Virus record (IMG/VR): IMGVR_UViG_3300028844_006119
Location: 78,187-142,186 of that record
Source: a virus
Reading direction: 5' to 3' (one strand)
DNA: 64,000 nt
Positions within the stretch are counted from its first letter, which is position 1, and the number at the start of each line of letters is the position of its first letter. Shown here in pieces: positions 12,401 to 45,876 of the stretch. The notes below the pieces were generated by a model that was not told the DNA's origin, did not search any database, and was given only the letters and a program-made list of their open reading frames with translations. A program made the position numbers and the translations under genes.

Positions 12401-12758
12401 GATTGAGAACAGGAACAAAGAGCTGAAGAAGTTGGGACTCCCCACCATCCAGCACAAGCCTCTGCTGAAGCCTATGGACAAAGTCCCGCTTTCCGGTAAA
12501 GAAGACTGGATGGCGCGACTAAACTTCCAGAGGCTTAAGGACACCCTTATCGAGGGCGGGGCACAGAACTGGAAGTCAGATATCCAGGGTCACCCCATCC
12601 CAGGCCTGGCGCATGGTGCGGCGTTTGGACTGCAAGCCCCAAAGACCGCAGCCATAAGCTCCCCTTTCCCCAAGCCCCCCAAACCTGTTAAACTTCCGGC
12701 ACCTGTGCCTGCCGCCCCGCAGGGCATCTTCGGGTCCTTCTTTGGAGCAAAGTCATGA
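6420..12758 (+). CDS. rpoBC: DNA-directed RNA polymerase, fused beta-beta' subunit (phage-encoded)
   Basis: Beta motifs in order: NPLQF..H, HLGLLDPLQTPE, GYNFED, GDKLSGRHGNKG, GVPSRMNVGQ, YMLKL, GGQRIG. Then beta' motifs: LPVLPP.LRP, KRQDLSGR, catalytic NADFDGD (10620..10640), GARKG bridge helix, GEPVTQMQMRTFHTGG trigger loop. Confidence 0.97.
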   Translation: MANLAPGDAYRLLEERTKEAIKSHFPVEGRENRLELVDISTDEDASSASGKHHSYNHTSQTDAKLHDRTWGPNIVGTFRLVNMETGKVVDQGKRTLGQLPKITSRYSYIVEGNERQVDSVFRLNPGAYHVEADNGDLLAKWNVAAGSKVGSFKISIERKHPKKLGAMYLIVKSGTQSTRKIPAYGILSALGVSDPAMRKAWGESVFEVNRRISKPNDLLNFHEAVEKRRAGKDKYETPTLSEARKFAKEVFEGAEVNPDTMLATLGKKFTNISGDALLASSAKVVGISKGTAEPDDRQSLSNKRLFGMEDFIHEEISKGSSRFEMQKKIRNNLDRKGKISDILPAASVGYGRLITRKFKAAQLPTQTNPLQFVSNHTKTTILGQAFGGIKGDNVNLDRDKLINPSHLGLLDPLQTPENTSTGVSLHIPIGANKKGQQLYTKVLNVKTGKFENKNAAEMEKAVVAYPDQVKITRTKTGATVRPLHPDVVVYDSDRSTAKRPWKDVQYVLPNAKTLFSVSANMIPFVQNDNGNRAMMAAKHQEQAVSLKDREAPLVQAEFAGGVSFDQMIGKLNSTTASVAGTVSRITKDSVYIKGAAGKAVSHPIYNHHPLNGTKHMMHSTPVVKVGDKVKVGQLIADSNFTKDGTLSLGTNLRVGYLPYKGYNFEDGTVISETAAKKLVSTHLHIEEAEMFANVVVNRKLWRNFAGANKATAEVMSKLDEDGVIKEGAKVVPDDVLITRLVKAEMTRENQDVKRSLKKAIRDYKDAAVVWKHEYGGTVVRVVKTAKKIQVHIRTEQTMEPGDKLSGRHGNKGIITKILPDDMMPKDKSGKPVHVLMSPAGVPSRMNVGQVLETAASKIARKTGKSYKIENFDASVDYSQKIKDELKKHNLSDTEELFDPETGESLGQIFTGEQYMLKLDHQAEKKVSARSGGSGYAYRPTGEAISGSGIGKGGQRIGGLDTYALLAHGAKRNLMEMQTYKSDSEQARDVWIRVMQGQRPPPPKVPTSMEHFKKYLRATGVYAEETGGVYSLSPMTDAQTLGQSKGALVAADKTLVAKGMLTKEEKGGLFDRGKTGGMEGKFWSHIDMKTRMPNPMFETAIQSLLGLKKAEFEKLVSENGAVGKKSGFQIIEERLRAIKVPSELKKAEEELKTAKKADLNKKYKKVRYLRALKELKTSPVDAYTNQHLPVLPPILRPVKIGYDGTQMIDAANQYYAMIGQMTKQVEQGKKEGLPKADIFKREAQLYDLVRALRLNGMTQEGRELPSLMDKMTGSKPKHSFFQQGVLSKRQDLSGRTVVTPEPALKMDQVGIPVDMAMETYKPFVIRELWRRMGIAKSPGEARRMIKKNHPSAKKALERVITQRPVIMKRDPALHMFSTMAFKPVLVPGKSIKIHPLVCGGFNADFDGDTMAMYVPVTEEAAEEALEKMLPSKNLFSPTHGGLMLTPSQDAVLGIYQATKWGKKVPGILTEEQALQQLKNGKLKSDNVITVKGHKKPTTAGRLRINKTLPGSVKNDPELLYDPKFRMAKGAMKGFATRVAQSDPDEFSGMIDGWKELGFTLSYKNGSSFSLNDFHDGKTIRDNVLKKYKKEENVIRKSGISRKKKDQKIIALYQKAGEELKVIGQAHYKAKKDNRMWEWAESGARSNWGQFGQLVMGPMLVQNPSKEFVPVPLTTSFGEGLPISQYWAALHGARKGTLDRAAGTRDPGALTKELINTVIAYSVTDKDCGTSKGTLMSVMAKDIEGRYLAREVPLKSGDKLTRGTLVSSALLTRMKNSGPQKVLVRSPLHCQQATGICATCYGLNERGTLYKKGTNVGIIAGHALGEPVTQMQMRTFHTGGAGTDGLTDYFQQAKDLFKVPEKLRGAATLAEVTGRVDKIETDALGGKKVTIGGKLHVVPHSTPLLPKIRVGADVKKTDALSVGRKNPHDILRISNNIHAVRNHLTTELDSLYVETTGNERRRNIETVIRAMTDVAQVTESSEHENLLNGQMMSLSRIENRNKELKKLGLPTIQHKPLLKPMDKVPLSGKEDWMARLNFQRLKDTLIEGGAQNWKSDIQGHPIPGLAHGAAFGLQAPKTAAISSPFPKPPKPVKLPAPVPAAPQGIFGSFFGAKS

Positions 12759-13177
12759 ACAAGATCGCCGCATACGAAATCGCACTCGAGAGAATCGAAC
12801 TTGAGAAGCGGGCTGACTCCCTGGTGGAGGCCTACGGCACCAGTGAGGGCTACATGCCGGGTGCCTACCTTCAGGCGTTTGATCAGATCGAGAAGGAAGC
12901 CGGAATCCAGGCTATCGCAAATATCGGGAGCCGCCTCTCAACAGCGGCGCGAGGCACCATTAAAGGGATGATGGGGAGCGGCGGGGCAGTAGTCCGAAAG
13001 GGCGGGAAGATGCAGCTTAGCAGGGGAGCCGGACTTGGGGACACGGCTAAGTACTACGGAGCTCGAGGCGTGCAGCGCGCGGGAAGATTCGCCATGCAGA
13101 ATCCCGGCGCGACTGCAGCTGTTGGCGGGGTCGGAGGTGTCGGAGCTGCCGGCCTCGGGTACAAGGCTCTGAAGTAG
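12755..13177 (+). CDS. Leader-bearing (MNKIAAYE...FDQIEKEA) basic Gly-rich peptide precursor
   Basis: ATGA-coupled to RNAP; acidic N-half, cationic C-half ending in AVGGVGGVGAAGLGYK. Confidence 0.75.
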   Translation: MNKIAAYEIALERIELEKRADSLVEAYGTSEGYMPGAYLQAFDQIEKEAGIQAIANIGSRLSTAARGTIKGMMGSGGAVVRKGGKMQLSRGAGLGDTAKYYGARGVQRAGRFAMQNPGATAAVGGVGGVGAAGLGYKALK

Positions 13178-13178
13178 A

Positions 13179-14378
13179 ATGCCCGCACCCGTCTCCCCAG
13201 CAGCGCCTTCTCCGGCATTGATCCTCCAAGGGCGCATCTCTGAAGTAGATGCGCCCCGGTGGCTATGCAAGGTGCGGGTTGACGGGAGAGACGATGATGT
13301 GACCACGACCATCCCATCTGTGTACTCTCATCCGATGAACGGGGAGGGGATCCACTTCTTGCCGGAGGTTGGAGCGTTTTGCTACGTCTGCTTTAGCTCC
13401 GACAAGAAGACCATCCCCTTCCTGCTTTCTGCTGGAGCCGCAACGGTGCCGAAGGATCGGTCTTCATCCGAAGGCCTTCCCGGGTCGATGGATATGTTCC
13501 GTCCCCTCCTGACCGCAGGGGACATTGCCCTTCTCACTAGAGACGGCAACGGCCTTACCCTGCGCAGAGGAGGAGTGACGGAACTCAAGGGCACGTCCCT
13601 GGCTAAGATCGTGTTCAACCCGACGATGAACCAGGTGTTCACCATCGCTGAGAACTACCGGGTCCAGACGTTTGGAGGATCTACTGAGTGGAAGAACCTC
13701 CGACGCGAGGAAAACCCAGATGGCCAGGTCAGGACGCGGCTCTCTACTGTGGTCAAGGAGTACGCCACCTCCAAGGGCTACAGTGTCCGTCTCCAGATGG
13801 GTGCCACTGAGGGAGCGCCTGTTGCGCTTCAGGGCGACGATTCGGCAGAGAAAGCGCCGGACAAGGTGGTGGAAGAGTCGGAAGCTGTGACGCTCTCCGG
13901 TACAGGAGATACATACACGGTCACGGTGCCCAAGTCTGTTCCGCTGCTGGACAGCACTAGGGTTGTGGACTTCAGGATCTACGAGGACGAGACGGTCGCT
14001 GAAGATGCGCTAGAGGTAGTGATGAATCTCGGCATGGACCGAGAAGGAGACATCCAACTCGAGACCGATGGCGCTATGAAGATCGACGTGCCCAAGAAGT
14101 GGGTGGAGATTGTCGTTGGAGGCAGCACTCCGTTTATCAATACGGAAGCGGCAGGGGCGCAGAAGGTACTGGTAACTACTGGGACACAGGGCAACACTGA
14201 GCCGGTGATCAAGGGATTCGCATTCCTGTCAGATCTTGCGGCCTCTCTGACCGAGATTAAGACGGCCCTGAACGGGCTCGGCATTCCGACTGTCTCGACG
14301 GATGCCCTATTGGCAAACATCCTTACTTCTGTGGCGGACGGAGCTCCATATCTGTCTACTACTCTGGAGAGTGAATAA
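13179..14378 (+). CDS. Baseplate central spike / gpV-Gp5-like protein
   Basis: N-terminal OB-fold-like GRISEVD...CKVRV...GIHFLPEVGAFCYVCF followed by beta-strand-rich region. Confidence 0.55.
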   Translation: MPAPVSPAAPSPALILQGRISEVDAPRWLCKVRVDGRDDDVTTTIPSVYSHPMNGEGIHFLPEVGAFCYVCFSSDKKTIPFLLSAGAATVPKDRSSSEGLPGSMDMFRPLLTAGDIALLTRDGNGLTLRRGGVTELKGTSLAKIVFNPTMNQVFTIAENYRVQTFGGSTEWKNLRREENPDGQVRTRLSTVVKEYATSKGYSVRLQMGATEGAPVALQGDDSAEKAPDKVVEESEAVTLSGTGDTYTVTVPKSVPLLDSTRVVDFRIYEDETVAEDALEVVMNLGMDREGDIQLETDGAMKIDVPKKWVEIVVGGSTPFINTEAAGAQKVLVTTGTQGNTEPVIKGFAFLSDLAASLTEIKTALNGLGIPTVSTDALLANILTSVADGAPYLSTTLESE

Positions 14379-14611
14379 TGCCCCTCACCGGCACCGAAGA
14401 TGCTCTCTCTGCTGCGATTAAGGCTAAGGTCCAGACTAATAACCCTGACTTTGCCAGTAAGATCGGGGATGATTGGGATTGGCTGTTTGACTCTATCGCC
14501 AAGGCGGTTGTAGATCACGTCAGAGACAATATTTTGGTCGCCGGCACTACGGTTACGACGTGTGGTGCTGGTGCCGGTTCCGGTGTCTTCACCCACGTTT
14601 CCACTTCTTGA
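14378..14611 (+). CDS. Small baseplate/spike-associated hypothetical protein
   Basis: TAATG-coupled to the spike-like gene. Confidence 0.6.
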   Translation: MPLTGTEDALSAAIKAKVQTNNPDFASKIGDDWDWLFDSIAKAVVDHVRDNILVAGTTVTTCGAGAGSGVFTHVSTS

Positions 14612-14619
14612 GGACTAAA

Positions 14620-15960
14620 ATGGCACAACTCCTATTTCTGCCTGATGTCGACCCGAATTCCTTTTTCGAGAAGGAGGCGTCGATCTCGAAGATGCCCGAG
14701 GACGAGAAGGATTGGCCCAGCCACATCCTGAGCATGCTGTACGAGCAGCTGCCCTTCCTCAGCAAGTTCTCGGTCAACATCATGATCCAGAGAATGGAGC
14801 CGGAGGCAGGATTTGCGTTTGGTTACGCCCTGGTTCTGTCTAAGAGCGATCCGCGGGTCTCCACTGAGTCCAAGAACGTTGAGAACGGGATCCGCATTCC
14901 TCTCATCGTGGCAGATCGGCAGCTCCAGCCGTTCCATACCTTTGAGCTGAAGGGACAGGTCCGGCCCCTTACTCCTGAACGAGTCGCGGCTGCCATGATG
15001 AACCCCGCGATGTTCGACGGCCCGGCCACAAAGCCCGAGACTCAGAAGTCTCTCGTCGATCAGATGTACCCGCCCTACCAGCAGCGCCAGGGCTTCGGCA
15101 TGACCAGCAGTGGAAATGCAGGAGGCATGGGTAAGGTCAGTTCTATGCCCCTCTCTGCTATGACGGCCCCACAGCTAAAGCAGCACGCCCGACTGAAGGA
15201 AACTGAGAGGGGAGATGCCGCTGCGGCATCCATGACCAGCGGTCAGCGGCTGGAGCAGGCAGGAAGAGCTGCCATTGTCCCCACTGCTGCGGGTGCGTTG
15301 ATCTCGGCAGGCAGAGGTGCCATGAAAGGCGGCGGGACTTGGAAAAACAGACTTGCCCGTGGGGCGGCTGGGGTCACTACCGGAGCCCTAACGGGTGCGG
15401 GAATCTCTGCAGTAAATACCGGAGTTCAGGAGTCCGCTAGAGTGGCACGGGATGCTCAGAGGGCTAAGTTGGCCTCCCGGATTAAGAAGGGTCTGCCTCC
15501 TGCGCTCGCCCGCAACGCAGCAAAGGTAAAAGCAGTGCAGAATCCGGAGGCGGGCGCAGAGGTCCCTGCGGGGCTGCGGAAGAAGGGTTCGGTAAGGGAA
15601 GCCCACGTAAAGGAAGCACTGGCCCGCCTGGACTTCAATCCCAGCCGTAGGATTCCTTCAAACATGGTTATGAAGGGCTCTAAGGTCAAGGTGATGCCGG
15701 GCGTTACCGCCATGTCCCTGCGCTTCTTCCCCGTCATGGGAACAAAATTTGTAATAGGCGTGGATACCAAGCTGGCGAAGAAGCTCGGGAAGATGAAGGA
15801 TCAGAATCAGATCCGGCAAGCACTAATGGGGCCCATGAAGGCGGAGATCCGGGCTGCGCGCGGTAAGCGCCCCTCCCCCGGAATGTTCATGCTCTTCTCC
15901 AAGACGAAGACGGGATACGCGTACCAGGTTCCCACCCCCATCCCCGGGATGGCCGCGTGA
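14620..15960 (+). CDS. Putative head protein: N-terminal globular part followed by cationic Gly-zipper cargo
   Basis: GAGGA RBS favours ATG 14620; FFEKEAS near N-terminus; composition switches after GMGKVSS. Confidence 0.7.
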   Translation: MAQLLFLPDVDPNSFFEKEASISKMPEDEKDWPSHILSMLYEQLPFLSKFSVNIMIQRMEPEAGFAFGYALVLSKSDPRVSTESKNVENGIRIPLIVADRQLQPFHTFELKGQVRPLTPERVAAAMMNPAMFDGPATKPETQKSLVDQMYPPYQQRQGFGMTSSGNAGGMGKVSSMPLSAMTAPQLKQHARLKETERGDAAAASMTSGQRLEQAGRAAIVPTAAGALISAGRGAMKGGGTWKNRLARGAAGVTTGALTGAGISAVNTGVQESARVARDAQRAKLASRIKKGLPPALARNAAKVKAVQNPEAGAEVPAGLRKKGSVREAHVKEALARLDFNPSRRIPSNMVMKGSKVKVMPGVTAMSLRFFPVMGTKFVIGVDTKLAKKLGKMKDQNQIRQALMGPMKAEIRAARGKRPSPGMFMLFSKTKTGYAYQVPTPIPGMAA

Positions 15961-16775
15961 TTCCCTTCTACCCCAAGTTTGGAAGCCAGGAGGATGCTCC
16001 AGGGTATGGCCCTGCTGCGTCCGAGGATAAGTGCGAGAACTGCGCGCATTATCGTAACTTGGGGAACCAAGGGCACTGCGAGAAGTTCTCGTTTATGTGC
16101 CAGCCTGAGTACGCCTGTGACGACTTCCGGCCTTCGGGAGTAATCAAGGAGTCCAGCGTGGTTGCGGAGGCTGCGGCCCTCCCCCGGAAGAAGGTCGAGG
16201 CGGTACAGGACACTGCGCGTGCCCTAAAAGAGAGAAACATCTCTCGAGCCCTGAACTCTGCCCAAAAAGACCTGATGCCGGGGAGATACGACAAGGCCAT
16301 TGAGAACCTAAAGCATCTATACCCCAAAGAGGCTGCTTCTCCTTTCATGCAGGGACTCGATCCTCTTGCAGGGGAGGTCGCCCGGGGAGCTATCCGGGAT
16401 CGGCTGAATCCCGACGTCTCTTCGGAGGAAATGACCCGCAGACGGAGACTCGCGACGCTGGGCGGAGTAGTCGGAGGCGGAGTCCTGGTCCCTGGCGCAG
16501 TCTCCGCTGTCCTAGGGGCCGGTGTTGGAGCTATGGGGAATAGAGGGTTGGGGAGAGTTACGGGAGCCGCGCGCCAGGCAGGGCGGGCTCTGCGAGGAAC
16601 CTTTACCCGGGCAGGAAGTCCTGCTCTTATTGCCGGGGCAGGGATCGGAGCAATGGGGGCTCGCTCCCAATACGATTTAGGGGCGGGGCTTGCCGAGCTT
16701 GCCGCCGAGAAGCACGCCTCTACCGACCACAGCTTGCGGTCTTTTCTTAGGAAGAATCATGAACAAGAACGCTAA
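15957..16775 (+). CDS. Multi-cassette protein: Cys mini-domain plus Gly-zipper segment, separated by K-x-A/S sites
   Basis: KFGS, KESS, KEAA, KHAS; CENC...C...C; LGGVVGGGVLVPGAVSAVLGAGVGAMG. Confidence 0.65.
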   Translation: MIPFYPKFGSQEDAPGYGPAASEDKCENCAHYRNLGNQGHCEKFSFMCQPEYACDDFRPSGVIKESSVVAEAAALPRKKVEAVQDTARALKERNISRALNSAQKDLMPGRYDKAIENLKHLYPKEAASPFMQGLDPLAGEVARGAIRDRLNPDVSSEEMTRRRRLATLGGVVGGGVLVPGAVSAVLGAGVGAMGNRGLGRVTGAARQAGRALRGTFTRAGSPALIAGAGIGAMGARSQYDLGAGLAELAAEKHASTDHSLRSFLRKNHEQER

Positions 16776-18747
16776 GGTCTTTGGGGCCACCCACGACTCC
16801 GACAGAGCGAACAATGCGGCCATCCCCTACTCTGGTAGGCGGCGGGAATATGTTCTCTACCTCAATGCGAAGTCTAAGGAATCCCCCACCAAGCTGGTTA
16901 CGGCGCTCCTAACTGGGGCAGGTCTCGGAGGACTGGCGGGAGGACTTGCCGGCCTTGGTGGGGGCGCGAAAGGTGCCCTAGTTGGTATCCTTGCTGGGGC
17001 CCTTGGTGGCTCCCTCTTCGGCGCCCTGGCTAAGGCCATCGATGATGGGAACATTCAAGAGGCTAAGCGCATCCTCCGTAAGGGCCACATCGACCAGGGG
17101 CTTGGGGAAGCCATCATGCGAAACCAGCGAGCCAAGGAACAGGTGGCCCGGAGCAGACACTCCGAGACCCAACGCCGTCTCTCTGGAATCGAGAGAGGTA
17201 TGAGTCGAGCCAGCAGCTACCCACACCGTAGTCGTAGGGTCACTGTGAAGGTCGGATCTCTTTGTTCCAAGATCGCAGGTACCTTGAACGAGTCCGACTT
17301 CGAGCGCTTCAATGAGGTGTTTTCCGACGCCAATACTCGACGAATGATTGAGAAGAACGCCTCCGTCATGGAGTGCCTCACCCTCCTGACTGACTCGGAG
17401 ATTCACAGCACCGACAAGATGGCTTCGGCGGCGGCCTCGGCATTCACGATGGGCTACGACGTGGTCCAGGTGAGACCTTCCGGCTACGGCTACACAGTCA
17501 AGGTGTCCGCTGCTCCGCAGGGCGTGGCCCCGCAAGAAACCCAGATGACTCAGCAGCAGGCTCAGCAGGCTCTTCCTCCTGAGATGCTTCAGGCTGCAGA
17601 CCAGCAGGGCGCTGGCACGGTCACCAACGTGCAGGCAGACCCCGATCCGCTCGCGGAGAAGATGGCGCCGGCTACCGGGTTCGGCCTCTACAAGGTCACC
17701 GATGCTACTTCAGGCAAGCAGGTCGTTGGCTATGTCATTCCCGGACTGTTTGATCCGGTCTCGGGACAGCCCTCGCAGGTGAGCCTGTTCACCAACGGCT
17801 CCGCATACTGCGTGCAGCCGGTCATCAGCGGCTCCCTGTTGGGCGTGAACTTCAATCTTCCCATCCCGGAGAGCCCGGAAGTTCGCGGTTTGGGCGTGTT
17901 CGTCAAGAACAACGAGAAGGCCATCATCGCGACCATGCCGTACAACATCATCACTAAGGTGTCGGTTGAAGGTAAGGGCTACTTCGCCGCGCAGGACATG
18001 CAGGGCAACGACATCCGCATCATCCCTTCTGAGGGCATTGCAAAGCCGGTTGCGACCTCTGCCACCGAGATTGTGATTCCCGCAGACTACAAGTTCATGC
18101 CTCTCGAGAACCCCATCCAGCTTGCTGGCGGGGAAGAGCTGATGAAGTCCGCTCAGGCCAACGCGTTCCATACGATGATGGAGCTCCGGGCCTGGAGTGG
18201 AGGATGTCGCCTCGATGGTCCCGTCTTCGAGAAGGTGGGATCGGGTGAGCACGACTGGGCCGACGGTGTCTTCTGGATGGCCGCTGCCGGTGTCCCCCAG
18301 AACGTAGGCTCTGCACTTCTGGAGAAGGCAGCTTCCACAGGAGAGCCTCTCCGTCTGTTTGGTCTTGCGCCGCTTTCTACTCGAGAGGAGTACGTGGTCG
18401 AGGCAGAGAAGGAAGCCATGGCGGAAATGGCAGACATCGAGATTCCCCAGAGAGTCAACCTCCTTAAGGAGATCGCAGCGGTGACCTTCTCCAAGGAAGC
18501 ATCGGCACTTGTGGACACTACGTCTGTGGATGCCGTGCTTGCCCTCAACTTCCTCAACCCCGAGAATGTTGAGACCTTTGTAGAGCACCTGCCGCAGCTT
18601 GAGCACGCTTCCGAGAAGCTTGCCAATATCGTTCTGGCGTCTCAGCTGGGGCTTCAGTCCATCTCTAAGACCGCAGCCGTCCGTGCGATGTTTGCACTTG
18701 AAGATGTCATCTCAGGACTCAAGAGCCTCAAGACGTACTCGGTGTAA
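16759..18747 (+). CDS. Putative head protein: N-terminal Gly-zipper cassette, then a K-x-A-rich globular part
   Basis: AGGAAG RBS before ATG 16759; GAGLGGLAGGLAGLGGG; KVGS, KIAG, KMAS, KSAQ, KAAS, KEAS, KTAA. Confidence 0.75.
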   Translation: MNKNAKVFGATHDSDRANNAAIPYSGRRREYVLYLNAKSKESPTKLVTALLTGAGLGGLAGGLAGLGGGAKGALVGILAGALGGSLFGALAKAIDDGNIQEAKRILRKGHIDQGLGEAIMRNQRAKEQVARSRHSETQRRLSGIERGMSRASSYPHRSRRVTVKVGSLCSKIAGTLNESDFERFNEVFSDANTRRMIEKNASVMECLTLLTDSEIHSTDKMASAAASAFTMGYDVVQVRPSGYGYTVKVSAAPQGVAPQETQMTQQQAQQALPPEMLQAADQQGAGTVTNVQADPDPLAEKMAPATGFGLYKVTDATSGKQVVGYVIPGLFDPVSGQPSQVSLFTNGSAYCVQPVISGSLLGVNFNLPIPESPEVRGLGVFVKNNEKAIIATMPYNIITKVSVEGKGYFAAQDMQGNDIRIIPSEGIAKPVATSATEIVIPADYKFMPLENPIQLAGGEELMKSAQANAFHTMMELRAWSGGCRLDGPVFEKVGSGEHDWADGVFWMAAAGVPQNVGSALLEKAASTGEPLRLFGLAPLSTREEYVVEAEKEAMAEMADIEIPQRVNLLKEIAAVTFSKEASALVDTTSVDAVLALNFLNPENVETFVEHLPQLEHASEKLANIVLASQLGLQSISKTAAVRAMFALEDVISGLKSLKTYSV

Positions 18748-18748
18748 A

Positions 18749-19615
18749 ATGGCACATCCTGCAGAGTTCTTCATTAAGTACCTATTGGTAGCCGACGAGG
18801 GTATCTCGTTGGACTCCATCAATAGTACGTTGGAGCTCCACGGGATCTCATCGATTGAGGGCTCTGACCTAAAGATCATTCGAGAGGATCTTGGGCAGAG
18901 ACCCTCTGACTTTCAGCCGTGGGACAGGTCTCATAGGGCTACAAATAGCTGGCTAAAAAAGAAGCGCATCTTCTCGCTTGTGCATCCTGATGTCAGCACG
19001 TTGGAGATGAAGAAGACTATCCTCTCCAGTGGCCGGACTCGGGAGAAGGTGGACCGACTTCTCTTGGGGAACGTCTCGTACTTGGAGGCTTCCCACAGGG
19101 TCACCAAGCTTGGGATGCGCGTCTCCGATGCTGCGATCTCCGAGTACTGTCACTACTTCTGGAACACCCAGACGATGGGCGTGAGTGATTGGGCGGCGTA
19201 CCTGGAGCGAGATTCTTCGGAGAGAACCTCTGCTGTGCGGAGCGCCTACTCCCTGGCGATGATGGCAGGCCCGGATGCCGCGATGTACCGCATCGGCGTC
19301 AAGAAGCAGCTGGACGGCAAGAAGATCATGATGGAGGTGCAGGCAGAGCTGTACCACACCTTCTTGGAGACCAGAACACTGCCGCTATCCACGAAGAAGG
19401 TGGAGATGCTCTCGGCATTGGCTCGCGGACTTGCTAGAATCGACGAGCGCGTTCAGGCGGGGGACTCTGCACTGCAGGAAACCCTGAAGAAGTTCGAGAA
19501 GTTCAAGGTCCTACATAACGAGGCCAAGCCTCCCAGCCTTCTAGAGCTTGCACCTGCGGGATCTGTTAGCAATAGGTCTCGCGACGAAATCCTTACCTCC
19601 GGGGCACAAAAATGA
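18749..19615 (+). CDS. Hypothetical protein
   Basis: ATG 18749 immediately after upstream TAA; phage-like codon usage. Confidence 0.7.
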   Translation: MAHPAEFFIKYLLVADEGISLDSINSTLELHGISSIEGSDLKIIREDLGQRPSDFQPWDRSHRATNSWLKKKRIFSLVHPDVSTLEMKKTILSSGRTREKVDRLLLGNVSYLEASHRVTKLGMRVSDAAISEYCHYFWNTQTMGVSDWAAYLERDSSERTSAVRSAYSLAMMAGPDAAMYRIGVKKQLDGKKIMMEVQAELYHTFLETRTLPLSTKKVEMLSALARGLARIDERVQAGDSALQETLKKFEKFKVLHNEAKPPSLLELAPAGSVSNRSRDEILTSGAQK

Positions 19616-20559
19616 CCATCAAAGCAAGAACTACTCGGACGGAGAACGATCTCGTTGCCTTCGCCAATGCCAACAACATCCCCCTGTCCACGCTAGACCA
19701 CACGGTCAACAGCTCTGGGATGTTCACGGTGTTCCATTCGGATGCAACGGTGGACCATGGCGCGGTAGTCTACGGCACGGACGGTACTACGGGGGCTGCG
19801 CCTGGCGTCACCAATATCGCCACGGCCATTGCTTCGGGATCGTACACGCAGCCCATCAACGTAGCAAACTCTGGGTCTCTTACCCTTTGGCTCACGGTAG
19901 TGGCGAGTAACAACTCCAAGCTAGATATCTACGTTCGGGAGTCTCGGCTTGGCGAGCCCGACGCGGCCGTAGCTACAAATTGGCATCTCCCTCGGTTCGA
20001 GACGCGAGCAAGCGGATCGGGAACTGTTGTTCTCAAGGAGCACAAGACTGAGCTACAGAGCTCGGACATGAATGTCGCCGGCGGCAAGTACGTGTTCAGC
20101 ATTCCAGTTGACCACGCGAACTGGGTCTCCCTAGTATTCGTCGGAAATGCCGTTCACAGAATCACCGTCATTGCAGAGGTACCGAACTGTACCGAACTGA
20201 TGAGTACGCCTGACTTTATGCAAGATCCCGATCGCTCAAAGCCGGGACATGAGGTTGCCTTCAACGTTCCCCCTCGTATGCTGTACGAGGGCCGAAACTT
20301 CAAGGCAGAGATCGTCACTCGAGGAGATGATCTCATCTACCAGTTCTTTCGTACGCGCCACACGGACTTCCGAAGCCTGGTAGCAGAGATCATCGAAGAC
20401 CACTTCGGGGACTCCTCTAAGTTCTCCGCAGCCACTGTCCCGGAGCTCAAGTCTCTGGGTGTTCGTGCTCGGGGCGTTCTGGACGCTCCATTTTTCAATC
20501 TAGACCACTACACGTCCTCCTTTTTGGGCCTGGTCGATGCTTGCCTCGACGAAGGCTAA
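19612..20559 (+). CDS. Hypothetical protein; apparent fusion of a beta-rich structural protein and a separate ~119-aa protein starting at 20200
   Basis: 10-bp tandem duplication at 20179..20198 removes a TGATG stop/start junction. Confidence 0.65.
   Translation: MTIKARTTRTENDLVAFANANNIPLSTLDHTVNSSGMFTVFHSDATVDHGAVVYGTDGTTGAAPGVTNIATAIASGSYTQPINVANSGSLTLWLTVVASNNSKLDIYVRESRLGEPDAAVATNWHLPRFETRASGSGTVVLKEHKTELQSSDMNVAGGKYVFSIPVDHANWVSLVFVGNAVHRITVIAEVPNCTELMSTPDFMQDPDRSKPGHEVAFNVPPRMLYEGRNFKAEIVTRGDDLIYQFFRTRHTDFRSLVAEIIEDHFGDSSKFSAATVPELKSLGVRARGVLDAPFFNLDHYTSSFLGLVDACLDEG
20179..20198 (+). repeat. Perfect 10-bp tandem duplication (GTACCGAACT x2)
   Basis: gtaccgaact gtaccgaact g atg. Confidence 0.9.
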
Positions 20560-20575
20560 GATGGAGAGACTTAAG

Positions 20576-20992
20576 ATGGATCCAGTTACTGCAATTGTTA
20601 TTGCCATCCTTGTTGGGGTTGGTGCGGGCATTGGTACTGGCGTGGGCATTAGCGGTGCCGCGCATTCAAAGGCTACTGCCAAGGCGATTGAAGCGCAGGC
20701 AGACAACATCGAGGCGCTGCAGTCGGGCCAGGCAGTCATTCTAGAGAATGCCACCAAGCCGATTGTGATTGATGCGGAGATCCGCAGCACGCTGGCAGAT
20801 GTCCCAGTCCAGTGCCGCACAGAAGTTGGCGGAGACCCTACGACGGTAGAGTGTCAGTGGGCTACCTGCATTCAGTACGGGCAAAGCAGCGCGAACCGAC
20901 CGGAGTGCCGGGAAGTCGAAAAGCTGATGATCGCAAAGCTGCAGGAAGTGGCCTGCCCTGAGCCCGCTATTGGCGACGACGAGGGCGAGTAG
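20576..20992 (+). CDS. Membrane-anchored coiled-coil protein with Cys-rich C-terminus (spanin-like architecture, uncertain)
   Basis: GGAGAG RBS; N-terminal TM (VTAIVIAILVGVGAGIG), coiled coil, 5 Cys. Confidence 0.55.
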   Translation: MDPVTAIVIAILVGVGAGIGTGVGISGAAHSKATAKAIEAQADNIEALQSGQAVILENATKPIVIDAEIRSTLADVPVQCRTEVGGDPTTVECQWATCIQYGQSSANRPECREVEKLMIAKLQEVACPEPAIGDDEGE

Positions 20993-21302
20993 CGTCCTTC
21001 TTGAAGGGCGTGTTGTCCTGCACTGGACCGAGTCCTTTGATCAAAATCAGCGCCTTAAAGTCCCACTTACTCCAGTGGGACTTTTTGTATACGGCGTCAT
21101 TGGCCTCGCACCACTCCTTCAATAGGGACCTAAAAAAAGCGACCTCCTCTTTGCGCACTCTCCGGTGAAGCCGCAAGTGGAACACCCAACGAAGGGGGTC
21201 CACTTGCGGCTTCAAGTCCCAGGCGTAGAGATCACCGAGCAGGGCTCGCTGAAAGCTCTCCACCGCTCTGGGTACCCATTTGAGGGAGAGGGGTGTACTC
21301 AC
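20967..21302 (-). CDS. Hypothetical protein
   Basis: GGAGG upstream; downstream of 21232..21795. Confidence 0.6.
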   Translation of the reverse strand: MSTPLSLKWVPRAVESFQRALLGDLYAWDLKPQVDPLRWVFHLRLHRRVRKEEVAFFRSLLKEWCEANDAVYKKSHWSKWDFKALILIKGLGPVQDNTPFKKDATRPRRRQ

Positions 21303-21795
21303 CGAGTCCCTCCTTTAGGGTGTGTTTCTTCTTCCTAGCATCCCACTCTACCTCGATCATGAGACCGAGTGGGTATTCCGAGACGAGGTCTCGGAAGGTG
21401 GAATTCCACACACTCCTCACTTGCTCTTTGTTGTAGAGCCGCATCTTAGCCTCCACAGCGAGGACCGCGATGTTTCGCGGCCCCTGTGGAGTCTTGATCT
21501 CGCAGTGGAGCCAACACTGCATTCCGAACCATTTATGGAACGTGATCGTGTGGCCCCTTACGGGAAGGATCCCCTCGTCCTGGCAGCGCCAGGAGTAGAA
21601 GCGCTTACAGCGCCTCTTGATCTCCTCGGCGGACTCGTCGTATGTCTTTCCTACATCCGAGGCCAAATCCTCCTCGTCCAGAATGGAAAAGGTATGGACC
21701 CGGAGAAGAGGATCCTGGAGATGGACGAGAGTAAACTCTCGGCCTCTCATCATCCTCTTCTCTACTCCGCACAGCAAAAATTCTGATTCTGACAT
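21232..21795 (-). CDS. Hypothetical protein
   Basis: AGGAGG RBS; preceded by GGCATAA motif. Confidence 0.7.
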   Translation of the reverse strand: MSESEFLLCGVEKRMMRGREFTLVHLQDPLLRVHTFSILDEEDLASDVGKTYDESAEEIKRRCKRFYSWRCQDEGILPVRGHTITFHKWFGMQCWLHCEIKTPQGPRNIAVLAVEAKMRLYNKEQVRSVWNSTFRDLVSEYPLGLMIEVEWDARKKKHTLKEGLGEYTPLPQMGTQSGGELSASPAR

Positions 21796-21824
21796 TAGTG
21801 CCTCCTTTTTTGTTAGCAGAGGAC

Positions 21825-21852
21825 TTATGCCTTACAATGGTCCAAACTTTAG
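21825..21852 (-). promoter_or_regulatory. Phage promoter-like motif (ctaaag-N15-GGCATAA), divergent from terminase
   Basis: 30 nt upstream of ATG 21795. Confidence 0.6.
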
Positions 21853-21860
21853 GAGGCCAG

Positions 21861-33482: not shown

Positions 33483-33511
33483 TCTATCGCTAGAAAGAGT
33501 TGACTCTTTTC

Positions 33512-33553
33512 AGGGCCCCGGTTCCCATAAGGGGGCTGGGGCCCTTTCGTTTT
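33512..33553 (+). terminator. Intrinsic terminator after MCP
   Basis: agggccccggttccc...gggggctggggccct followed by ttcgtttt. Confidence 0.75.
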
Positions 33554-33572
33554 CTCAGAGGAATTCATCGCT

Positions 33573-34139: not shown

Positions 34140-34140
34140 A

Positions 34141-35114: not shown

Positions 35115-35123
35115 GAGCTCTAA

Positions 35124-35972
35124 ATGTCTGACTGGTTCAAGAATCCCGCCTCTGAAATCCCCGATGAGATGTGGAGAGCTCCTGCCCCCATGCAGCGCCA
35201 GGCGGACGCCGTGGTGATGTGGGCTGAGCTCACGGGCAAGCACGCTTCCTTCGACGGCGTCAAGGCGTTTGGGCAAACCCTTCGGCTAAACCCGCGAAGT
35301 GATGATCTAGAGAATGCCTTTGCTCACTATGAGAAAAAGACGGGCAAACGTAGGAACCAGATGTCCCAGAGAGACGTCTACAACTCTTTGCGGGCTACGG
35401 GCATGGGAAAGTCCGCCGCATTCAAGCCCCTCTGGGAGCAACAGGGCGTCAAATCGTGGGCACAGGAAGATGCTTTGATGGCGGCCATCAAAGCCGAGGC
35501 TACTCCTGCAAGAAAGGCAAAGCTTATTCAGAGGCTCCGTAAGTTAGAGAGCTCCAACCTAGAAGGGGATTACGGCATTAAAAGTGCCTCCCTTGCTGAG
35601 ATGGTGGGGCACAAAGAAGCCGCCTGGAAGCCTGGAGTCAAAAAGGCCATTCACATGGCTGGGGACAACATCGAGCTCACGGGTGCTGCAATCGGAGCGC
35701 CACTTGGCGGCCTAAAGGCATACACGGACTATCGTGAGGGGAAGGGTGGGATTAGCAAGGCCGAGGCAACCCTTAAGGGGGAGATCACCAAGGCGCAGTC
35801 TCAGAAGGCGGACAAGAAGCGGATCGCTAAGCTGAGGCAGAAGCTCCAGACCGCCAAGTCCCGCAGAGAGAACATCGGCGCAACGACCGCAAAGGGGATC
35901 GGCCTCGGGGCGACGACTGGAGCCCTCGGCATGCACGCAATTAAGCGGATGCGCGGGGCAGGGCCGAAGTGA
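35124..35972 (+). CDS. Multi-cassette K-x-A protein with basic Gly-zipper C-terminal cargo
   Basis: KHAS, KSAA, KSAS, KEAA; GAAIGAPLGG and GIGLGATTGALG. Confidence 0.7.
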   Translation: MSDWFKNPASEIPDEMWRAPAPMQRQADAVVMWAELTGKHASFDGVKAFGQTLRLNPRSDDLENAFAHYEKKTGKRRNQMSQRDVYNSLRATGMGKSAAFKPLWEQQGVKSWAQEDALMAAIKAEATPARKAKLIQRLRKLESSNLEGDYGIKSASLAEMVGHKEAAWKPGVKKAIHMAGDNIELTGAAIGAPLGGLKAYTDYREGKGGISKAEATLKGEITKAQSQKADKKRIAKLRQKLQTAKSRRENIGATTAKGIGLGATTGALGMHAIKRMRGAGPK

Positions 35973-36847
35973 TCAAGTTTTGCAATGAAAGAGTGCTCTC
36001 TTTTGAGCTGGATTACCTGGACGTCATGTGGGAAATCGAGCCCACAACTGAGGACGTTCAGGAGTACCAGTTCTTTGTAGAGCGCTCTGAGGCGGAGGCA
36101 GGGCCTTGGCTTCAGATTGCAGGACCCCTCGTCGATGTCTACCGATTCCGGGACAACGCTACTCCCCAGATTACGACCAATGCCCGGACTCTCTTCTACC
36201 GAGTAAAGGCACTTCATTCCCCTACCGGAAGGATTGTCTACTCTCCTCTTTTCGACCAAGAGGGGCCTATTTCTTTACACGCTAAAGAAATGGTGAGACT
36301 GGAGAGAGTGCTGTTTGAGGAATTCGTCGCAATCCACTGTTGGATTTTCCCTCGCCGCACGTTTGGGCAGAGATGCCCGAACTGCTATGACGACGTCCTG
36401 GACAAAGTCATTGATGACTCCTGCCCTACCTGCTGGAGTACCGGATTCAGTGGCGGTTACCACCACCCCATCTCTTTTTGGGCCCAGATTGATGCCCCAG
36501 AGCAAACGGAGCAGGTGTCTCTTGAGGACCACCGAAGGGTGCTGTATTACCAGATTCGGTGTGGCCCAAGCCCCGCGCTGAAGCCTATGGACCTAATCAT
36601 CGATCACCAAAACAGAAGGTACCGGGTGGTGACGGTCTCCGGCACTGCCCGACTGGGGGTAACTGTTCGGCAGGAGGCACGTCTGGTCCAGATCCAGAGG
36701 GGCTCCATCGAGGACAAGATCCCGCTGAAGGTAGATACTGCTACAGTAAAGAGATTCCCAGAAAAGGTCTTTACCAACCCCCACTCGTTAGAGGCCGCAG
36801 AGCCTGACATCTCTAGCATCTTCGGTGCCTACGGATACACCCCATGA
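35969..36847 (+). CDS. Putative head-closure/neck protein with CxxC pairs
   Basis: FN3-like N-terminus; CPNC...CPTC..TGF.GGY; position in neck region. Confidence 0.5.
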   Translation: MIKFCNERVLSFELDYLDVMWEIEPTTEDVQEYQFFVERSEAEAGPWLQIAGPLVDVYRFRDNATPQITTNARTLFYRVKALHSPTGRIVYSPLFDQEGPISLHAKEMVRLERVLFEEFVAIHCWIFPRRTFGQRCPNCYDDVLDKVIDDSCPTCWSTGFSGGYHHPISFWAQIDAPEQTEQVSLEDHRRVLYYQIRCGPSPALKPMDLIIDHQNRRYRVVTVSGTARLGVTVRQEARLVQIQRGSIEDKIPLKVDTATVKRFPEKVFTNPHSLEAAEPDISSIFGAYGYTP

Positions 36848-37200
36848 CGAATCGCAAGACGGACAACGGAAGGCCCTTCACTCGAGGGATGCTTCTTCCG
36901 GCTGCAGCAACCGGCGCTGGGATGTTTGCCGGAGGCATGATGGGTGCCGCCGGAGCACGGGCCATTCTCCGCTCCCCCGGTATGGCAGAAAAGCTCCGCA
37001 GAATGAGCCCGGCACAAAGAAAGGTCTTCGGCGAGCGAGCCCTTCTGGTGACTAATACCGCAGGCAACATGGCTGGGGCTGGGGCCGGGTACCTCGCCCA
37101 CTCGCTCTTTCAGGACGAGATGGACAAGAGAAAGAAGAGCAGGGAGAAGACTGCCTCCGCGTTTCTCTACTGCTTGGAGTACCTAAACAGCTATGAGTAG
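36844..37200 (+). CDS. Small basic Gly-rich membrane-like protein with C-terminal EKTAS
   Basis: AAATGAGMFAGGMMGAAG; AGAGAGYLAH; FQDEMDK...EKTASAF. Confidence 0.7.
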   Translation: MTNRKTDNGRPFTRGMLLPAAATGAGMFAGGMMGAAGARAILRSPGMAEKLRRMSPAQRKVFGERALLVTNTAGNMAGAGAGYLAHSLFQDEMDKRKKSREKTASAFLYCLEYLNSYE

Positions 37201-44158: not shown

Positions 44159-44401
44159 ATGAATAAGATCGCAATGTACGAAGAGCTGCTCGAAAATCAC
44201 CCTCTCTGGAGCAAAGAAGGAGGCATTAGTTCGGGGCTGAAGGCCCTGAAGGCCTCCGGTCTGAAGGCCTCCGGTCTGAAGGCGGGGACGGCTAAGAAGA
44301 TGCTTGCAGCACGACCGATGTCGCAGGGGGGGTCGCAGAGATGGATGATGAAGAGCACACCATCGCTGAGGCAGAATGTCGGGTCTCTTTTCAAGAGGTA
44401 G
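44159..44401 (+). CDS. Leader-bearing (MNKIAMYE...KEG) small basic peptide precursor
   Basis: AAGGAAG RBS; same N-terminus as 12755..13177; 15-nt tandem repeat gives (LKASG)2. Confidence 0.7.
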   Translation: MNKIAMYEELLENHPLWSKEGGISSGLKALKASGLKASGLKAGTAKKMLAARPMSQGGSQRWMMKSTPSLRQNVGSLFKR

Positions 44402-44408: not shown

Positions 44409-44696
44409 GTGGATCTTGAAGTCCTACATTTCTTCTCTGATGAGGTGGAGAAGACTGCGTCTGGCCCGTGGAATCAGAACGCTGGCGCGTTCGCAAGTGT
44501 CGCCGGGGAGCTGGACGATGGCGGCGGGTTCACTGTCTCTGATCTTCGGAAGTACCTGCGCTACCCACAGTCGCGATCCTCAGTTCAGCGACCTACTAAG
44601 CCTACGGTGATGTGGACCTCCTCGGATGCAGAGGACTGGCTCATCTTCAGCCCAAACAAGCACCGGGCGTTTGTTCGCTGGGCTAGAGGCAAATGA
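44409..44696 (+). CDS. Leader-bearing (LHFFSDEVEKTA) small protein
   Basis: GTG start with AGGT RBS; leader nearly identical to next gene. Confidence 0.7.
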   Translation: MDLEVLHFFSDEVEKTASGPWNQNAGAFASVAGELDDGGGFTVSDLRKYLRYPQSRSSVQRPTKPTVMWTSSDAEDWLIFSPNKHRAFVRWARGK

Positions 44697-44740
44697 TGGA
44701 TCTCGAAGTCTTACATTTCTTTTCTGATGAGGTGGAGAAG
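44409..44740 (+). repeat. 45-nt direct repeat encoding the shared leader (44409..44453 and 44696..44740)
   Basis: 41/45 identical; differences are the start codon and three synonymous positions. Confidence 0.9.
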
Positions 44741-44941
44741 CTCGCAGCGAAGAGTCGGCACAACTACTACATGCGGAATCGTAATCAGATTCTGCAGAAG
44801 CAGCGTCAGTACCGAGCCAAGAACAAGGCCGGTATTGCACGCAGGCAGAAGATGTACCGGCGGAAGGTAAAGATGGGCGCGCATAGACAGCGTAAGCGCA
44901 TCTCTACGGGCCACTCCTACACCTACGGCGGGTACAGATAG
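44693..44941 (+). CDS. Leader-bearing (LHFFSDEVEKLA) protamine-like Arg/Lys-rich peptide precursor
   Basis: 64 aa after the leader: 21 K/R, no D/E. Confidence 0.75.
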   Translation: MMDLEVLHFFSDEVEKLAAKSRHNYYMRNRNQILQKQRQYRAKNKAGIARRQKMYRRKVKMGAHRQRKRISTGHSYTYGGYR

Positions 44942-45876
44942 TGGATGTCCCTGACCTATTCGACCAGAAGAGGAAGAAGGTCTCTGGGCTAAAGATGCCC
45001 AGGCAGTTTACTCCGCGGTTACCCGGCGCATCCACTAAGGGGCAGGCTCCCATAAACCCGTTCTCAGGAAATAAGATGAAGGTCGCATCCCTGTCTTCTT
45101 TCCGAGAAGCTCAGCTCATAAAGACTGCCTCTGCGGAAGACGCTCATCTCTACTTTGAGATGTGCAAGCTTGCGGATACTGGGGATGAGCTTAAGATTCG
45201 CATGTTCCTAGCGCAGCATCCTGAGATGGAGAAAGACGCTGGGATCATCGGCCACGGCTTCAGGCTGCTGAGTAAGGCCCTGGGAGGGGCAGGTAAGACT
45301 TTCAACAGTAGCCGCTTGACTGCCGCCGCAGGCAAAGCTGAATACGCAGCAGCAAAAAGGTTCAGCGGGGCGGCGGTAAATCCTAGAAACCTAGGGCAGG
45401 CCGCTAAGGAAACCCAGTACGCCTCTCTAGCGGGAGCTTCTGGTAAGCGGGGAGGGGAGCTCACCGCTGCCGCAAAAAACATCCGAGAAGCCAAAGCCGT
45501 CAAATCTCAGGTAAATGCTGGGCAGTTTGCTGCACCTGCTGCGGCTCCTGCTCCCTCTAACGTCGTCCCTGGCGCCCCTTCCGCGTTTAAGGGACAGCCG
45601 GACAAATATGTAAAGGCATATGCGGACGTCGGGGATGAGACAGCTAAGAGGACCCTGGCCGGCAGAGTAAGTGAGAAGCAGCTCGAAGCTGTCGCGAAGA
45701 CCGCTCCTACTCCTAAGACGGAGCTGCTCTCGAACAGTACTCTCGGCAAGGCCATCGTGGGCACGGCCGCCGTAGGCGGGGTCGGGGCTGTGGGCTACGG
45801 AGGCTACAAGGGCGTTCAGCGCGGAAAGGCGCAGAACCTGCAGCAGCAGGCTCGCGGGTTCAACTACGGGATGTAG
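44941..45876 (+). CDS. K-x-A protein with cationic amphipathic/Gly-zipper cargo
   Basis: KVAS, KTAS, KLAD, MEKDA|GIIGHGFRLLSKALGG; C-terminal GTAAVGGVGAVGYGGYK. Confidence 0.75.
   Translation: MDVPDLFDQKRKKVSGLKMPRQFTPRLPGASTKGQAPINPFSGNKMKVASLSSFREAQLIKTASAEDAHLYFEMCKLADTGDELKIRMFLAQHPEMEKDAGIIGHGFRLLSKALGGAGKTFNSSRLTAAAGKAEYAAAKRFSGAAVNPRNLGQAAKETQYASLAGASGKRGGELTAAAKNIREAKAVKSQVNAGQFAAPAAAPAPSNVVPGAPSAFKGQPDKYVKAYADVGDETAKRTLAGRVSEKQLEAVAKTAPTPKTELLSNSTLGKAIVGTAAVGGVGAVGYGGYKGVQRGKAQNLQQQARGFNYGM

Follow-up and report, generated by a model that had tools for sequence, protein, structure and literature searches.

Modular proteins with glycine-zipper helices and K-x-A leaders in the morphogenesis region of a large uncultured phage: candidate head-internal cargo with a possible membrane role

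The 64,000-nucleotide stretch of DNA analyzed here, referred to as the window, consists of the final 64 kb (positions 78,187 to 142,186) of the IMG/VR record IMGVR_UViG_3300028844_006119, which represents an uncultured phage with a genome of about 185 kb; the 142-kb record is estimated to be 77% complete, and the G+C content of the window is 57%. At least 13 proteins in the window contain uncharged Gly/Ala segments bracketed by Lys or Arg, and more are encoded upstream in the record. Judged by their sequences, these proteins are a class assembled from common modules and not one homologous family. The full plan, as we read it, would comprise three parts: a conserved N-terminal leader ending in Lys-x-Ala (K-x-A), which probably targets the protein to the prohead and may then be removed by the head protease; a fast-evolving, strongly basic and Gly-rich body, which often starts with an amphipathic helix; and an uncharged Gly/Ala helix of 15-25 residues with GxxxG periodicity, which is bracketed by Lys or Arg and often has a Tyr at its end. 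The explanation that we favor for the whole, with slightly less than even confidence, is that these are modular head-internal proteins (cargo or ejection proteins), the zippers of which insert into the host envelope after ejection.

Five of the proteins had been described in an earlier reading of the window (the original prediction) as a family of cationic cargo peptides resembling membrane-active peptides. They are here called P1 to P5 and have the following features (aa, amino acids; strand in brackets).

12755-13177 (+): P1, 140 aa; it has a leader (aa 1-49, 12755-12901) that contains two K-x-A sites, an amphipathic start (aa 50-73, 12902-12973) and a Gly module (aa 118-136, 13106-13162), which is followed by K-A-L-K and the stop codon
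44941-45876 (+): P2, 311 aa; after four invariant K-x-A sites within aa 46-100 (45076-45240) come a conserved amphipathic helix (aa 101-127, 45241-45321), a hypervariable middle rich in Pro, Ala and Thr, a Gly module (aa 271-289, 45751-45807) and an invariant C-terminal tail (aa 291-311, 45811-45873)
26198-26491 (+): P3, 97 aa; the FSDEI-x-K-x-A leader (aa 1-22, 26198-26263) is followed by a basic amphipathic part, N-P, a Gly module (aa 54-73, 26357-26416) and K-K
28969-29937 (+; alternative start 28984): P4, the scaffold-slot protein, directly 3' of the protease-like gene; it comprises an acidic half of repeats in which E-K-x-A sites occur, a basic half, a Gly module (aa 271-285, 29779-29823), K-K and an acidic C-terminal domain
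35124-35972 (+): P5, 282 aa; the N-terminal 40 aa are conserved, and a Gly module (aa 258-273, 35895-35942) precedes K-R near the C-terminus

In the record, the gene call for P2 starts at Met46, which gives a 266-aa form, but the 45 upstream codons (44941-45075) are conserved as protein in many homologs, and the longer, GTG-started form is thus probably real.

Modules were defined as segments of at least 13 residues without D, E, K, R, Q, N or P, with at least four Gly and a Gly plus Ala content of at least 40%. Genes were called by a simple longest-open reading frame (ORF) rule, and a few of the module-bearing ORFs are for this reason probably not genes (e.g., 30198-31037 on the minus strand and 62782-63321). 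The whole record contains 29 modules in 22 ORFs, as compared to 6.2 ± 2.3 (maximum 12) in 300 within-protein shuffles, which is an enrichment of about five-fold. For the clade, 251 unique modules were pooled from 1074 ORFs of the record, 34 related loci, five related genomes and parts of the cultured phages Arash and D69. In this pool, the Gly-to-Gly frequency is 0.389 at i+4 and 0.422 at i+8, as compared to 0.30 ± 0.012-0.015 in shuffled modules, while Gly-Gly pairs are depleted at i+1 to i+3. The z-values for the i+4/i+8 periodicity, about 7-8, are inflated because the pooled modules are related to each other, but the pattern is still consistent over deep branches, and the 13 modules of the cultured relatives by themselves again have the Gly peak at i+4 (z 3.7). 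The motif GxxxGxxxG is present in 114 of the 251 modules, against 56 ± 6 in shuffles, which bears out the GxxxG zipper of the original prediction. Module lengths in the pool peak at 15-19 residues, and the flanking residues are mostly R, K or P before the module and mostly K or R after it. Since Gly recurs with a period of four, "glycine zipper" is a fair name and the segments should be helices rather than silk-like strands; a silk-like beta structure was rejected, the period being four and not two.

The five quoted segments and the three putative mature N-termini starting with Gly-Ile were all present in the translations of the genes to which they had been assigned, the third Gly-Ile start being located in the 80-aa protein 44159-44401. 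This third start follows K-E-G, however, and not a K-x-A site as had been supposed for all three. The set of five is real but only a fraction of a far larger one, and the term "family" is appropriate for short modules but not for whole proteins. Pairwise BLAST identified no full-length homology but only short pieces in common, namely the leaders, the Gly segments and, in some proteins, an N-P cap before the Gly segment, and a single homologous family of five peptides was rejected for this reason. Scans of the five named proteins, ten more module proteins and the Arash and D69 counterparts against PHROG and Pfam yielded nothing significant. Among the Pfam glycine-zipper models (PF13441 YMGG, PF13488 and PF05433), none scored above its cut-off and none matched any of the five named proteins; the best score was obtained with PF13441 on 16690-17400 (E 0.51, 10.5 bits against a cut-off of 28.9). 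The other module-bearing genes of the window, and genes that have the leaders in common with them, are the following.

527-1750 (+): 407-aa head-region protein; two Gly modules (992-1036, 1085-1129) and 8 K-x-A sites
2538-3503 (+): 321-aa basic (+23) protein; FFSDEI-x-K-x-A leader and two Gly modules (3168-3215, 3273-3323)
14560-15960 (+): 466-aa protein; Gly module aa 268-285 (15361-15414)
15957-16775 (+): 272-aa basic protein; twin Gly modules aa 165-194 (16449-16538)
16690-18747 (+): 685-aa conserved head-region protein; twin Gly-zipper hairpin aa 69-114 (16894-17031) in the variable N-terminal part; 12 K-x-A sites
23648-24025 (-): 125-aa ORF of uncertain membership; Gly module 23915-23968
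26502-27023 (+): 173-aa conserved protein; E-K-x-A leader, Gly/Ala segment aa 41-59 (26622-26678) and folded C-terminal domain
29940-30227 (+): 95-aa basic protein; FFSDEI-x-K-x-A leader without a Gly module
36844-37200 (+): 118-aa basic protein; Gly module aa 20-38 (36901-36957)
44159-44401 (+): 80-aa protein; P1-like N-terminus, third Gly-Ile start, charge of +12 after the leader, without a long Gly module
44409-44696 and 44693-44941 (+): two small genes with near-identical FFSDEV-x-K-x-A leaders (BLAST E 6e-9 between them)

A leader of the type FFSDE-[IV]-x-K-x-A is common to the genes that start at 2538, 26198, 29940, 44409 and 44693, and a second type is common to 12755 and 44159. The leader is portable, since it is also carried by 29940-30227, which lacks a Gly module. 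It also behaves as a repeatable cassette, in that the leader unit ending in E-K-E-A is present twice in tandem in one P1 homolog (P0025). The leaders had been proposed to be acidic propeptides that keep the peptides inactive. Acidic leaders are indeed present in 12755, 26198, 28984 and 26502, with net charges of -5, -3, -31 and -6, respectively, but two of the five named leaders are basic (+3 in 44941 and +5 in 35124). Most of the proteins have a leader with K-x-A at its end; the parts that follow the leaders are strongly basic (net +7 to +23), and the predicted mature parts are 59-303 aa long, most of them 75-300 aa.

K-x-A is modestly enriched over the whole record (262 occurrences, 218 expected) and strongly so in some head proteins, with 12 sites in 16690-18747, 11 each in 25300-26208 and the protease-like protein, and 5 in 31324-31689. 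The residue after the Ala is usually Ser, Ala or Gly, and the sites are invariant in alignments of the P1 family, the P2 family and the protease-like protein. The motif thus fits a prohead-protease recognition site, and from this pattern we consider it rather likely that the proteins are cut at K-x-A. The presumed protease is encoded within the same region:

27033-29006 (+): protease-like protein, 657 aa, presumed prohead protease; match to phrog_18299 (E 9.6e-5); invariant K37-x-A39; 11 K-x-A sites

No other match to this protein was obtained with phmmer (first 300 aa), with a 17-sequence profile against PDB sequences or with Pfam. In two related loci (L018 2684-5866 and L019 3183-6365), about 1.2 kb of additional DNA splits the protease-like gene at query residue 197, which could be an intein or homing-endonuclease insertion. 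The 302-aa head protein 25300-26208 has its 11 K-x-A sites, as compared to 2.7 expected, mostly in the context hydrophobic-x-K-x-A-S, and its sequence has the look of a protein that would be cleaved into numerous fragments.

Alignments of metagenomic relatives indicate which parts of the proteins are under constraint. For P1, with 26 metagenomic homologs, the first 49 residues are highly conserved and include two K-x-A sites with an invariant Lys, whereas after the second site only the basic, Gly-rich character is kept, with a semi-conserved C-terminal zipper; the mean pairwise identity is 0.71 for the leader, 0.25 for the middle and 0.43 for the Gly module. In the P2 family, the amphipathic helix after the fourth K-x-A site has an identity of 0.59, the middle one of 0.23 with very different lengths, and the zipper one of 0.51, and the proteins end in an invariant C-terminal tail of seven residues. 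Over both families, identities are 0.61-0.71 for leaders, 0.43-0.51 for Gly modules and 0.23-0.25 for middles.

The plan is also maintained where sequence similarity is not. The P3 slot, located between the orthologs of 25300-26208 and 26502-27023, is occupied in relatives by small ORFs that BLAST cannot align but that have the same plan, consisting of R/E-K-x-A, a basic amphipathic stretch, N-P, a Gly/Ala helix and basic residues; ORFs of such architecture were found in the related loci L002, L007, L014, L016, L017, L018, L025 and L031. Likewise, the slots of 35124 and 36844 contain one- or two-module proteins in genomes in which the capsid protein is only 70-80% identical, with two Gly modules in each of the P5-slot proteins of three related genomes (G001, G003 and G005) and two modules in the 36844-slot proteins of relatives. 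The P4 module (K/R, Gly/Ala, G-Y-G-G, K-K) is kept in nearly all orthologs and duplicated in some, and one P4 ortholog has a nine-residue string in common with the zipper of 44941. In distant relatives (L015 2255-3379, L023 2605-3705 and L016/L020/L031), the orthologs of 26502-27023 are twice as long, with a charged, coiled-coil-like C-terminal addition and, in two of them, an extra N-terminal hydrophobic Gly/Ala segment.

A simple reading as a family of antimicrobial peptides fits these proteins poorly: the mature parts are mostly 75-300 aa long, the module is also present in the scaffold-slot protein and in large head proteins, and in the P1 family the leader is far better conserved than the supposedly active part. 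Neither do they look like short secreted peptides, since their leaders end in K-x-A and their genes are located among portal, protease, capsid and tail genes. The leaders of class II bacteriocins, in comparison, end in a double glycine. No dedicated transporter gene was noticed in the window, although none was specifically sought.

The genomic surroundings are defined by the following genes, in addition to the protease-like gene.

3500-5602 (+): portal protein; match to Arash gp204, annotated as portal (tblastn E 1e-87)
6420-12758 (+): single-chain beta-beta' RNA polymerase, 2112 aa, directly 3' of the portal gene
21798-23585: large terminase
32346-33482 (+): major capsid protein with a K-T-A site at residues 23-25

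With terminase, protease-like, capsid, portal and polymerase genes around them, the zipper proteins of this large tailed phage are placed within its block for head and tail morphogenesis. PHROGs and Pfam searches of the other proteins in the window gave almost no further matches. A search with the capsid protein among cultured phages matched only the Vibrio phages D69, D181 and D148 (25% identity), and megablast of 26000-36000 against cultured phages gave no match. In the search for related loci, 13179-14378 as query recovered none and 46179-48029 recovered one locus. In tblastn searches, the RNA polymerase, the portal, the N-terminal domain of the protease-like protein and four tail-region proteins of the window matched Arash, and D69 matched most of these proteins and also the capsid protein.

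Arash is a Salmonella myovirus with a 95-nm head, in the virions of which 116 proteins were identified by liquid chromatography-mass spectrometry, with the RNA polymerase beta subunit as the most detected protein and a sigma factor also present (PMC10585845). The virion homologs of the RNA polymerase in the window are the abundant gp206 and gp216. A scan of the whole Arash genome with the same module rule identified eight module-bearing ORFs, all eight of which are annotated as structural or tail proteins. Seven of them are listed in the virion table, with 1952 spectra for gp4, 1060 for gp97, 832 for gp191, 371 for gp238, 355 for gp221, 222 for gp224 and 143 for gp213 (PMC10585845), while gp241 has its structural label in GenBank only. 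Given that 116 of the 272 Arash proteins were detected, the chance probability of eight out of eight is about 0.001. The available proxy thus speaks for the module proteins being virion components, as the original prediction had assumed, and we consider it probable, by analogy with Arash, that those of the present phage are located inside the virion.

Arash gp97, a very basic protein of 439 aa, consists of a chain of five to seven K/R-bracketed zippers. Arash gp221 is a homolog of 26502-27023 (blastp E 4e-5) and has the same position, between the gp220-like and protease-like genes. D69 encodes five small structural-module proteins of like design, several of which contain K-x-A-S. Modules bracketed by K/R, together with K-x-A-(S/G) motifs, are thus common within one clade to the D69 proteins and to Arash gp97, gp4, gp213, gp221 and gp224, although all counterparts except gp221 are analogs by architecture that cannot be aligned, and the modules persist in these distant cultured relatives of lower G+C content. 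The Arash counterparts have been named merely "structural protein", with no mention of a function, a cleavage map or the motif (PMC10585845). At the end of the tail module, a PAAR spike-tip protein is encoded in both phages (Arash, L061 39468-39752; D69, L060 29054-29344), which fits a contractile, membrane-piercing tail in the clade.

The physical properties of the segments are compatible with a latent affinity for membranes. The predicted mature N-termini of 12755, 44941 and 26198 have helical moments over 18 residues of 0.51-0.56 and a charge of +3; shuffles reach such moments in 0.2-3.4% of the trials, and the values resemble those for magainin 2 (0.51) and melittin (0.55), the sequences of which were entered by hand. 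The basic amphipathic start of the original prediction was thus recovered in these three proteins. On the translocon scale, for which the values were likewise entered by hand, the best 19-mers of the modules sum to +4.1 to +9.4 kcal/mol, and the same measure gives +6.1 for T7 gp14, +7.9 for N4 gp52 and +10.6 for N4 gp51. T7 gp14 inserts into the membrane once ejected, and N4 gp51 and gp52 behave as membrane proteins (PMC13434306, PMC8954989). The weak hydrophobicity of the modules is thus expected, since the T7 and N4 proteins are equally weak and such proteins must remain soluble in the capsid. An AlphaFold2 model of 12755-13177, made with 20 homologs, is all-helical but of low confidence (pLDDT, the predicted local distance difference test, 50.7), and a look-up of this protein in the ESM Atlas returned only scores of 0.81 to unnamed viral clusters, with no meaningful structural neighbors. 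The model of 26502-27023 (18 homologs; pLDDT 77.9) is confident for the leader (residues 1-35) and the C-terminal domain (70-150), but the Gly/Ala segment at residues 41-60 has a pLDDT of 45-52 and is thus not packed into the fold. A Foldseek search with this model against PDB and BFVD identified no structural neighbor at E <= 0.001.

The sequence of events that we favor would begin with the loading of the proteins into the prohead core, where the scaffold-slot protein carries the same helix, and would continue with trimming at K-x-A by the head protease. The trimmed proteins should remain soluble, since their zipper helices are only marginally hydrophobic. They would exit together with the DNA, the RNA polymerase and the sigma factor, the beta-beta' RNA polymerase (6420-12758) being presumably the large cargo delivered with them. 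Outside the capsid, the zipper helices and amphipathic starts would enter the host envelope and self-associate, and the inserted zippers may help DNA and large protein cargo to cross the envelope or to remain anchored there. Latent membrane insertion and self-association after ejection is, by analogy with ejection proteins, the part that we put forward more hesitantly than the scheme as a whole. It is favored by the Tyr/Lys-ended zippers, the tight twin hairpins, the conserved helix in 44941, the hydrophobicity similar to that of ejection proteins and the size of the polymerase that must be delivered (more than 230 kDa). Several observations weigh against this scheme. The modules are not classical membrane-spanning helices on the translocon scale, and they are numerous, with abundant carriers in Arash, although a channel would need fewer copies. 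A role within the head is suggested by the fact that the scaffold-slot protein and large conserved head proteins carry the module as well. The known conduits of ejection proteins are from short-tailed phages, whereas the tail of Arash is contractile. The assignment of the protease derives from one weak family match (phrog_18299). Packaging is seen through the Arash proxy, while for the present phage it is the genes that have been read. Finally, the Arash preparation was obtained from a sucrose gradient and contained 116 of 272 proteins including metabolic enzymes, and its specificity is thus modest, which makes the virion listing supportive but not decisive.

Many of these observations may also be accommodated if the proteins form only an internal matrix, in which the basic bodies would bind DNA and the zippers would act as a glue among the proteins and between them and the scaffold-slot protein, with no membrane role. 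Such a matrix might be an inner core or a DNA-organizing gel, in the manner of the phiKZ inner body or of the core and internal proteins of T4. Net charges of +7 to +23 are in line with this, as are the conservation of the module in the scaffold-slot protein, its presence inside large head proteins and the high rank of Arash gp97, with its five to seven modules, and gp4 in the detection of virion proteins. In soluble proteins, too, helices are packed by GxxxG motifs. On the other hand, the known DNA-condensing internal proteins need no uncharged helices of 15-25 residues, membrane hairpins are where Tyr/Lys ends and tight twin hairpins (16894-17031) are typically seen, and the amphipathic starts are conserved in the 44941 family. 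We regard the internal matrix as doubtful when taken on its own, yet almost as likely as membrane insertion, and the two roles are not mutually exclusive. A signal for docking to the capsid, in which the Gly/Ala segment and its basic end would bind the inner face of the shell or the scaffold and the leader would merely serve as a handle for the protease, could be modeled on the cargo-loading peptides of encapsulins or on the coat-binding end of the P22 scaffold. Three of the five named proteins (12755, 35124 and 44941) indeed have the module at the C-terminus or close to it, the scaffold-slot protein contains it too, and its sequence is semi-conserved next to regions that drift. Docking is nevertheless unlikely, because the period-4 Gly pattern indicates a helix and not an extended peptide, a large number of modules lie internally or at the N-terminus, conservation is higher in the leaders than in the modules, and the separate invariant C-terminal tail of the 44941 family would be better suited for this purpose.

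The C-terminal position of the segment in three of the five proteins would also be compatible with a function as tail-anchored, ordinary membrane proteins in the infected cell, for example as assembly anchors or in lysis or superinfection exclusion, and not as part of the virion, and the neighboring protein 20537-20992 does have a genuine hydrophobic helix (sum 0.4). However, a single helix with a sum of +4 to +9 is too weakly hydrophobic to insert stably, the genes alternate with those for portal, protease, capsid and tail proteins, the K-x-A leaders are in common with head proteins and the Arash counterparts were found in virion preparations, which makes such a function very improbable. Least likely of all is that the segments are a compositional by-product, that is, Gly/Ala-rich linkers of low complexity in a genome with 57% G+C that have no specific function. 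The low AlphaFold2 confidence for 12755-13177, the fast evolution of the middles and the lack of family matches in PHROG and Pfam would agree with this, but such linkers would explain neither the five-fold enrichment over shuffles of the same proteins nor the i+4/i+8 periodicity with z-values of about 7-8, nor that the K/R brackets are conserved and that the modules persist in syntenic slots and in cultured relatives with a lower G+C content.

Returning to the reading as head-internal cargo, the closest parallel in logic is offered by the internal proteins of T4 (IPI, IPII, IPIII and Alt), in which, as here, a short conserved N-terminal leader is attached to unrelated, fast-evolving and mostly basic cargo of the head region. 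As in the T4 targeting sequence, the leader ends at a presumed protease site and the cargo would be expected to be injected with the DNA. The presumed sites differ, with K-x-A followed by a small residue here and Leu/Ile-x-Glu for the gp21 prohead protease of T4, and neither PHROG nor Pfam indicated a sequence relation to the T4 internal proteins, which to our knowledge are devoid of glycine-zipper helices. A second parallel is with T7 gp14/gp15/gp16, P22 gp7/gp16/gp20 and N4 gp51/gp52, which are soluble in the capsid and insert into host membranes once ejected (PMC8954989, PMC13434306). The membrane segments of these podovirus ejection proteins are rich in small residues and marginally hydrophobic, like the modules described here (+6.1 for T7 gp14 and +7.9 for N4 gp52, as compared to +4.1 to +9.4), and N4 likewise co-ejects a virion RNA polymerase. 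The podovirus sets consist of three large low-copy proteins, whereas we find a dozen or more small to mid-sized basic proteins along with modules in larger ones, and the tails also differ, being contractile in the cultured relative Arash and short in T7, P22 and N4. No homology to podovirus ejection proteins was detected, with no PHROG match and no fold match for the one confident model, and we know of no propeptide leader in the T7 and N4 ejection proteins. With no homology and a different presumed cleavage code, the proteins are members of neither the T4 internal-protein nor the podovirus ejection-protein family, though similar to both in logic.

For the helix itself, the same (G/A/S)xxxGxxxG periodicity over 15-25 residues is found in transmembrane glycine zippers and in the Pfam hairpin families YMGG, Omp and Rick_17kDa_Anti/SlyB, and twin segments joined by a turn of one to five residues are present both in the Pfam zipper hairpins and here. 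The present proteins differ in having no lipoprotein or secretion signal and in their phage head context. Transmembrane glycine zippers are said to have been described in 2005 by Kim et al. in VacA, MscS, prion and amyloid-beta segments. Among the non-enveloped animal viruses, adenovirus protein VI and the nodavirus gamma peptide are membrane-penetration peptides that are released upon maturation. The likeness to these is conceptual only, in that an amphipathic or hydrophobic peptide stored in the capsid is freed by a maturation protease and serves at entry, which is also the concept of the original prediction; the lineage and the entry route are different, and there is no relation in sequence or fold. 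In the literature on glycine zippers or GxxxG motifs in phage capsids, virions or ejection, no description of such proteins was found, and a paper on polyvalent proteins contains no mention of them (PMC5512222).

Phages that carry a polymerase must move large proteins as well as DNA over the envelope and protect them in the first minutes. What is described here is a testable module (Lys/Arg, GxxxG helix, Lys/Arg) that recurs in the scaffold-slot protein and, per genome, in a dozen or more head proteins; it is found throughout a deep clade with two cultured members, Arash (Salmonella) and D69 (Vibrio). If the module is an element for membrane insertion or core assembly, a good part of the "hypothetical structural proteins" of these phages would be accounted for. 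If the scheme is true, K-x-A would be a new cleavage code and the proteins a new cargo architecture beside the T4 and phiKZ paradigms. A more far-reaching idea, speculative and rather improbable at present, is that of a general class of phage "entry kit", in which latent membrane-inserting modules stored in the capsid are ejected along with the DNA, the single-chain RNA polymerase and the sigma factor and then recruit or remodel lipid from the host inner membrane into a conduit or a protected, transcriptionally active early compartment; the latter would be comparable to the early infection vesicle of phiKZ-like phages (bioRxiv 10.1101/2024.03.24.586471), but in an unrelated clade.

Some additional observations concern the neighboring genes. 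The 151-aa acidic protein 20537-20992, encoded just 5' of the terminase gene, contains a 28-residue hydrophobic helix (best 19-mer sum 0.4) and is probably a true membrane protein, unlike the other modules. The RNA polymerase is a single chain of 2112 aa in the window and also a single chain in two of the related genomes (G001 and G005), while it is encoded by two adjacent genes in a third (G004, 97231-103529) and by two genes with other genes between them in D69 (L060 4945-11996) and Arash (L061/L064; gp206 and gp216), and the fusion state of the polymerase thus differs across the clade. In G003 (14161-23094; L040, L043 and L044), the match to the polymerase is in three pieces, separated by gaps of about 1.4 kb and 1.0 kb that fall inside very long open frames of 2986 and 3379 aa, which suggests in-frame insertions such as inteins.

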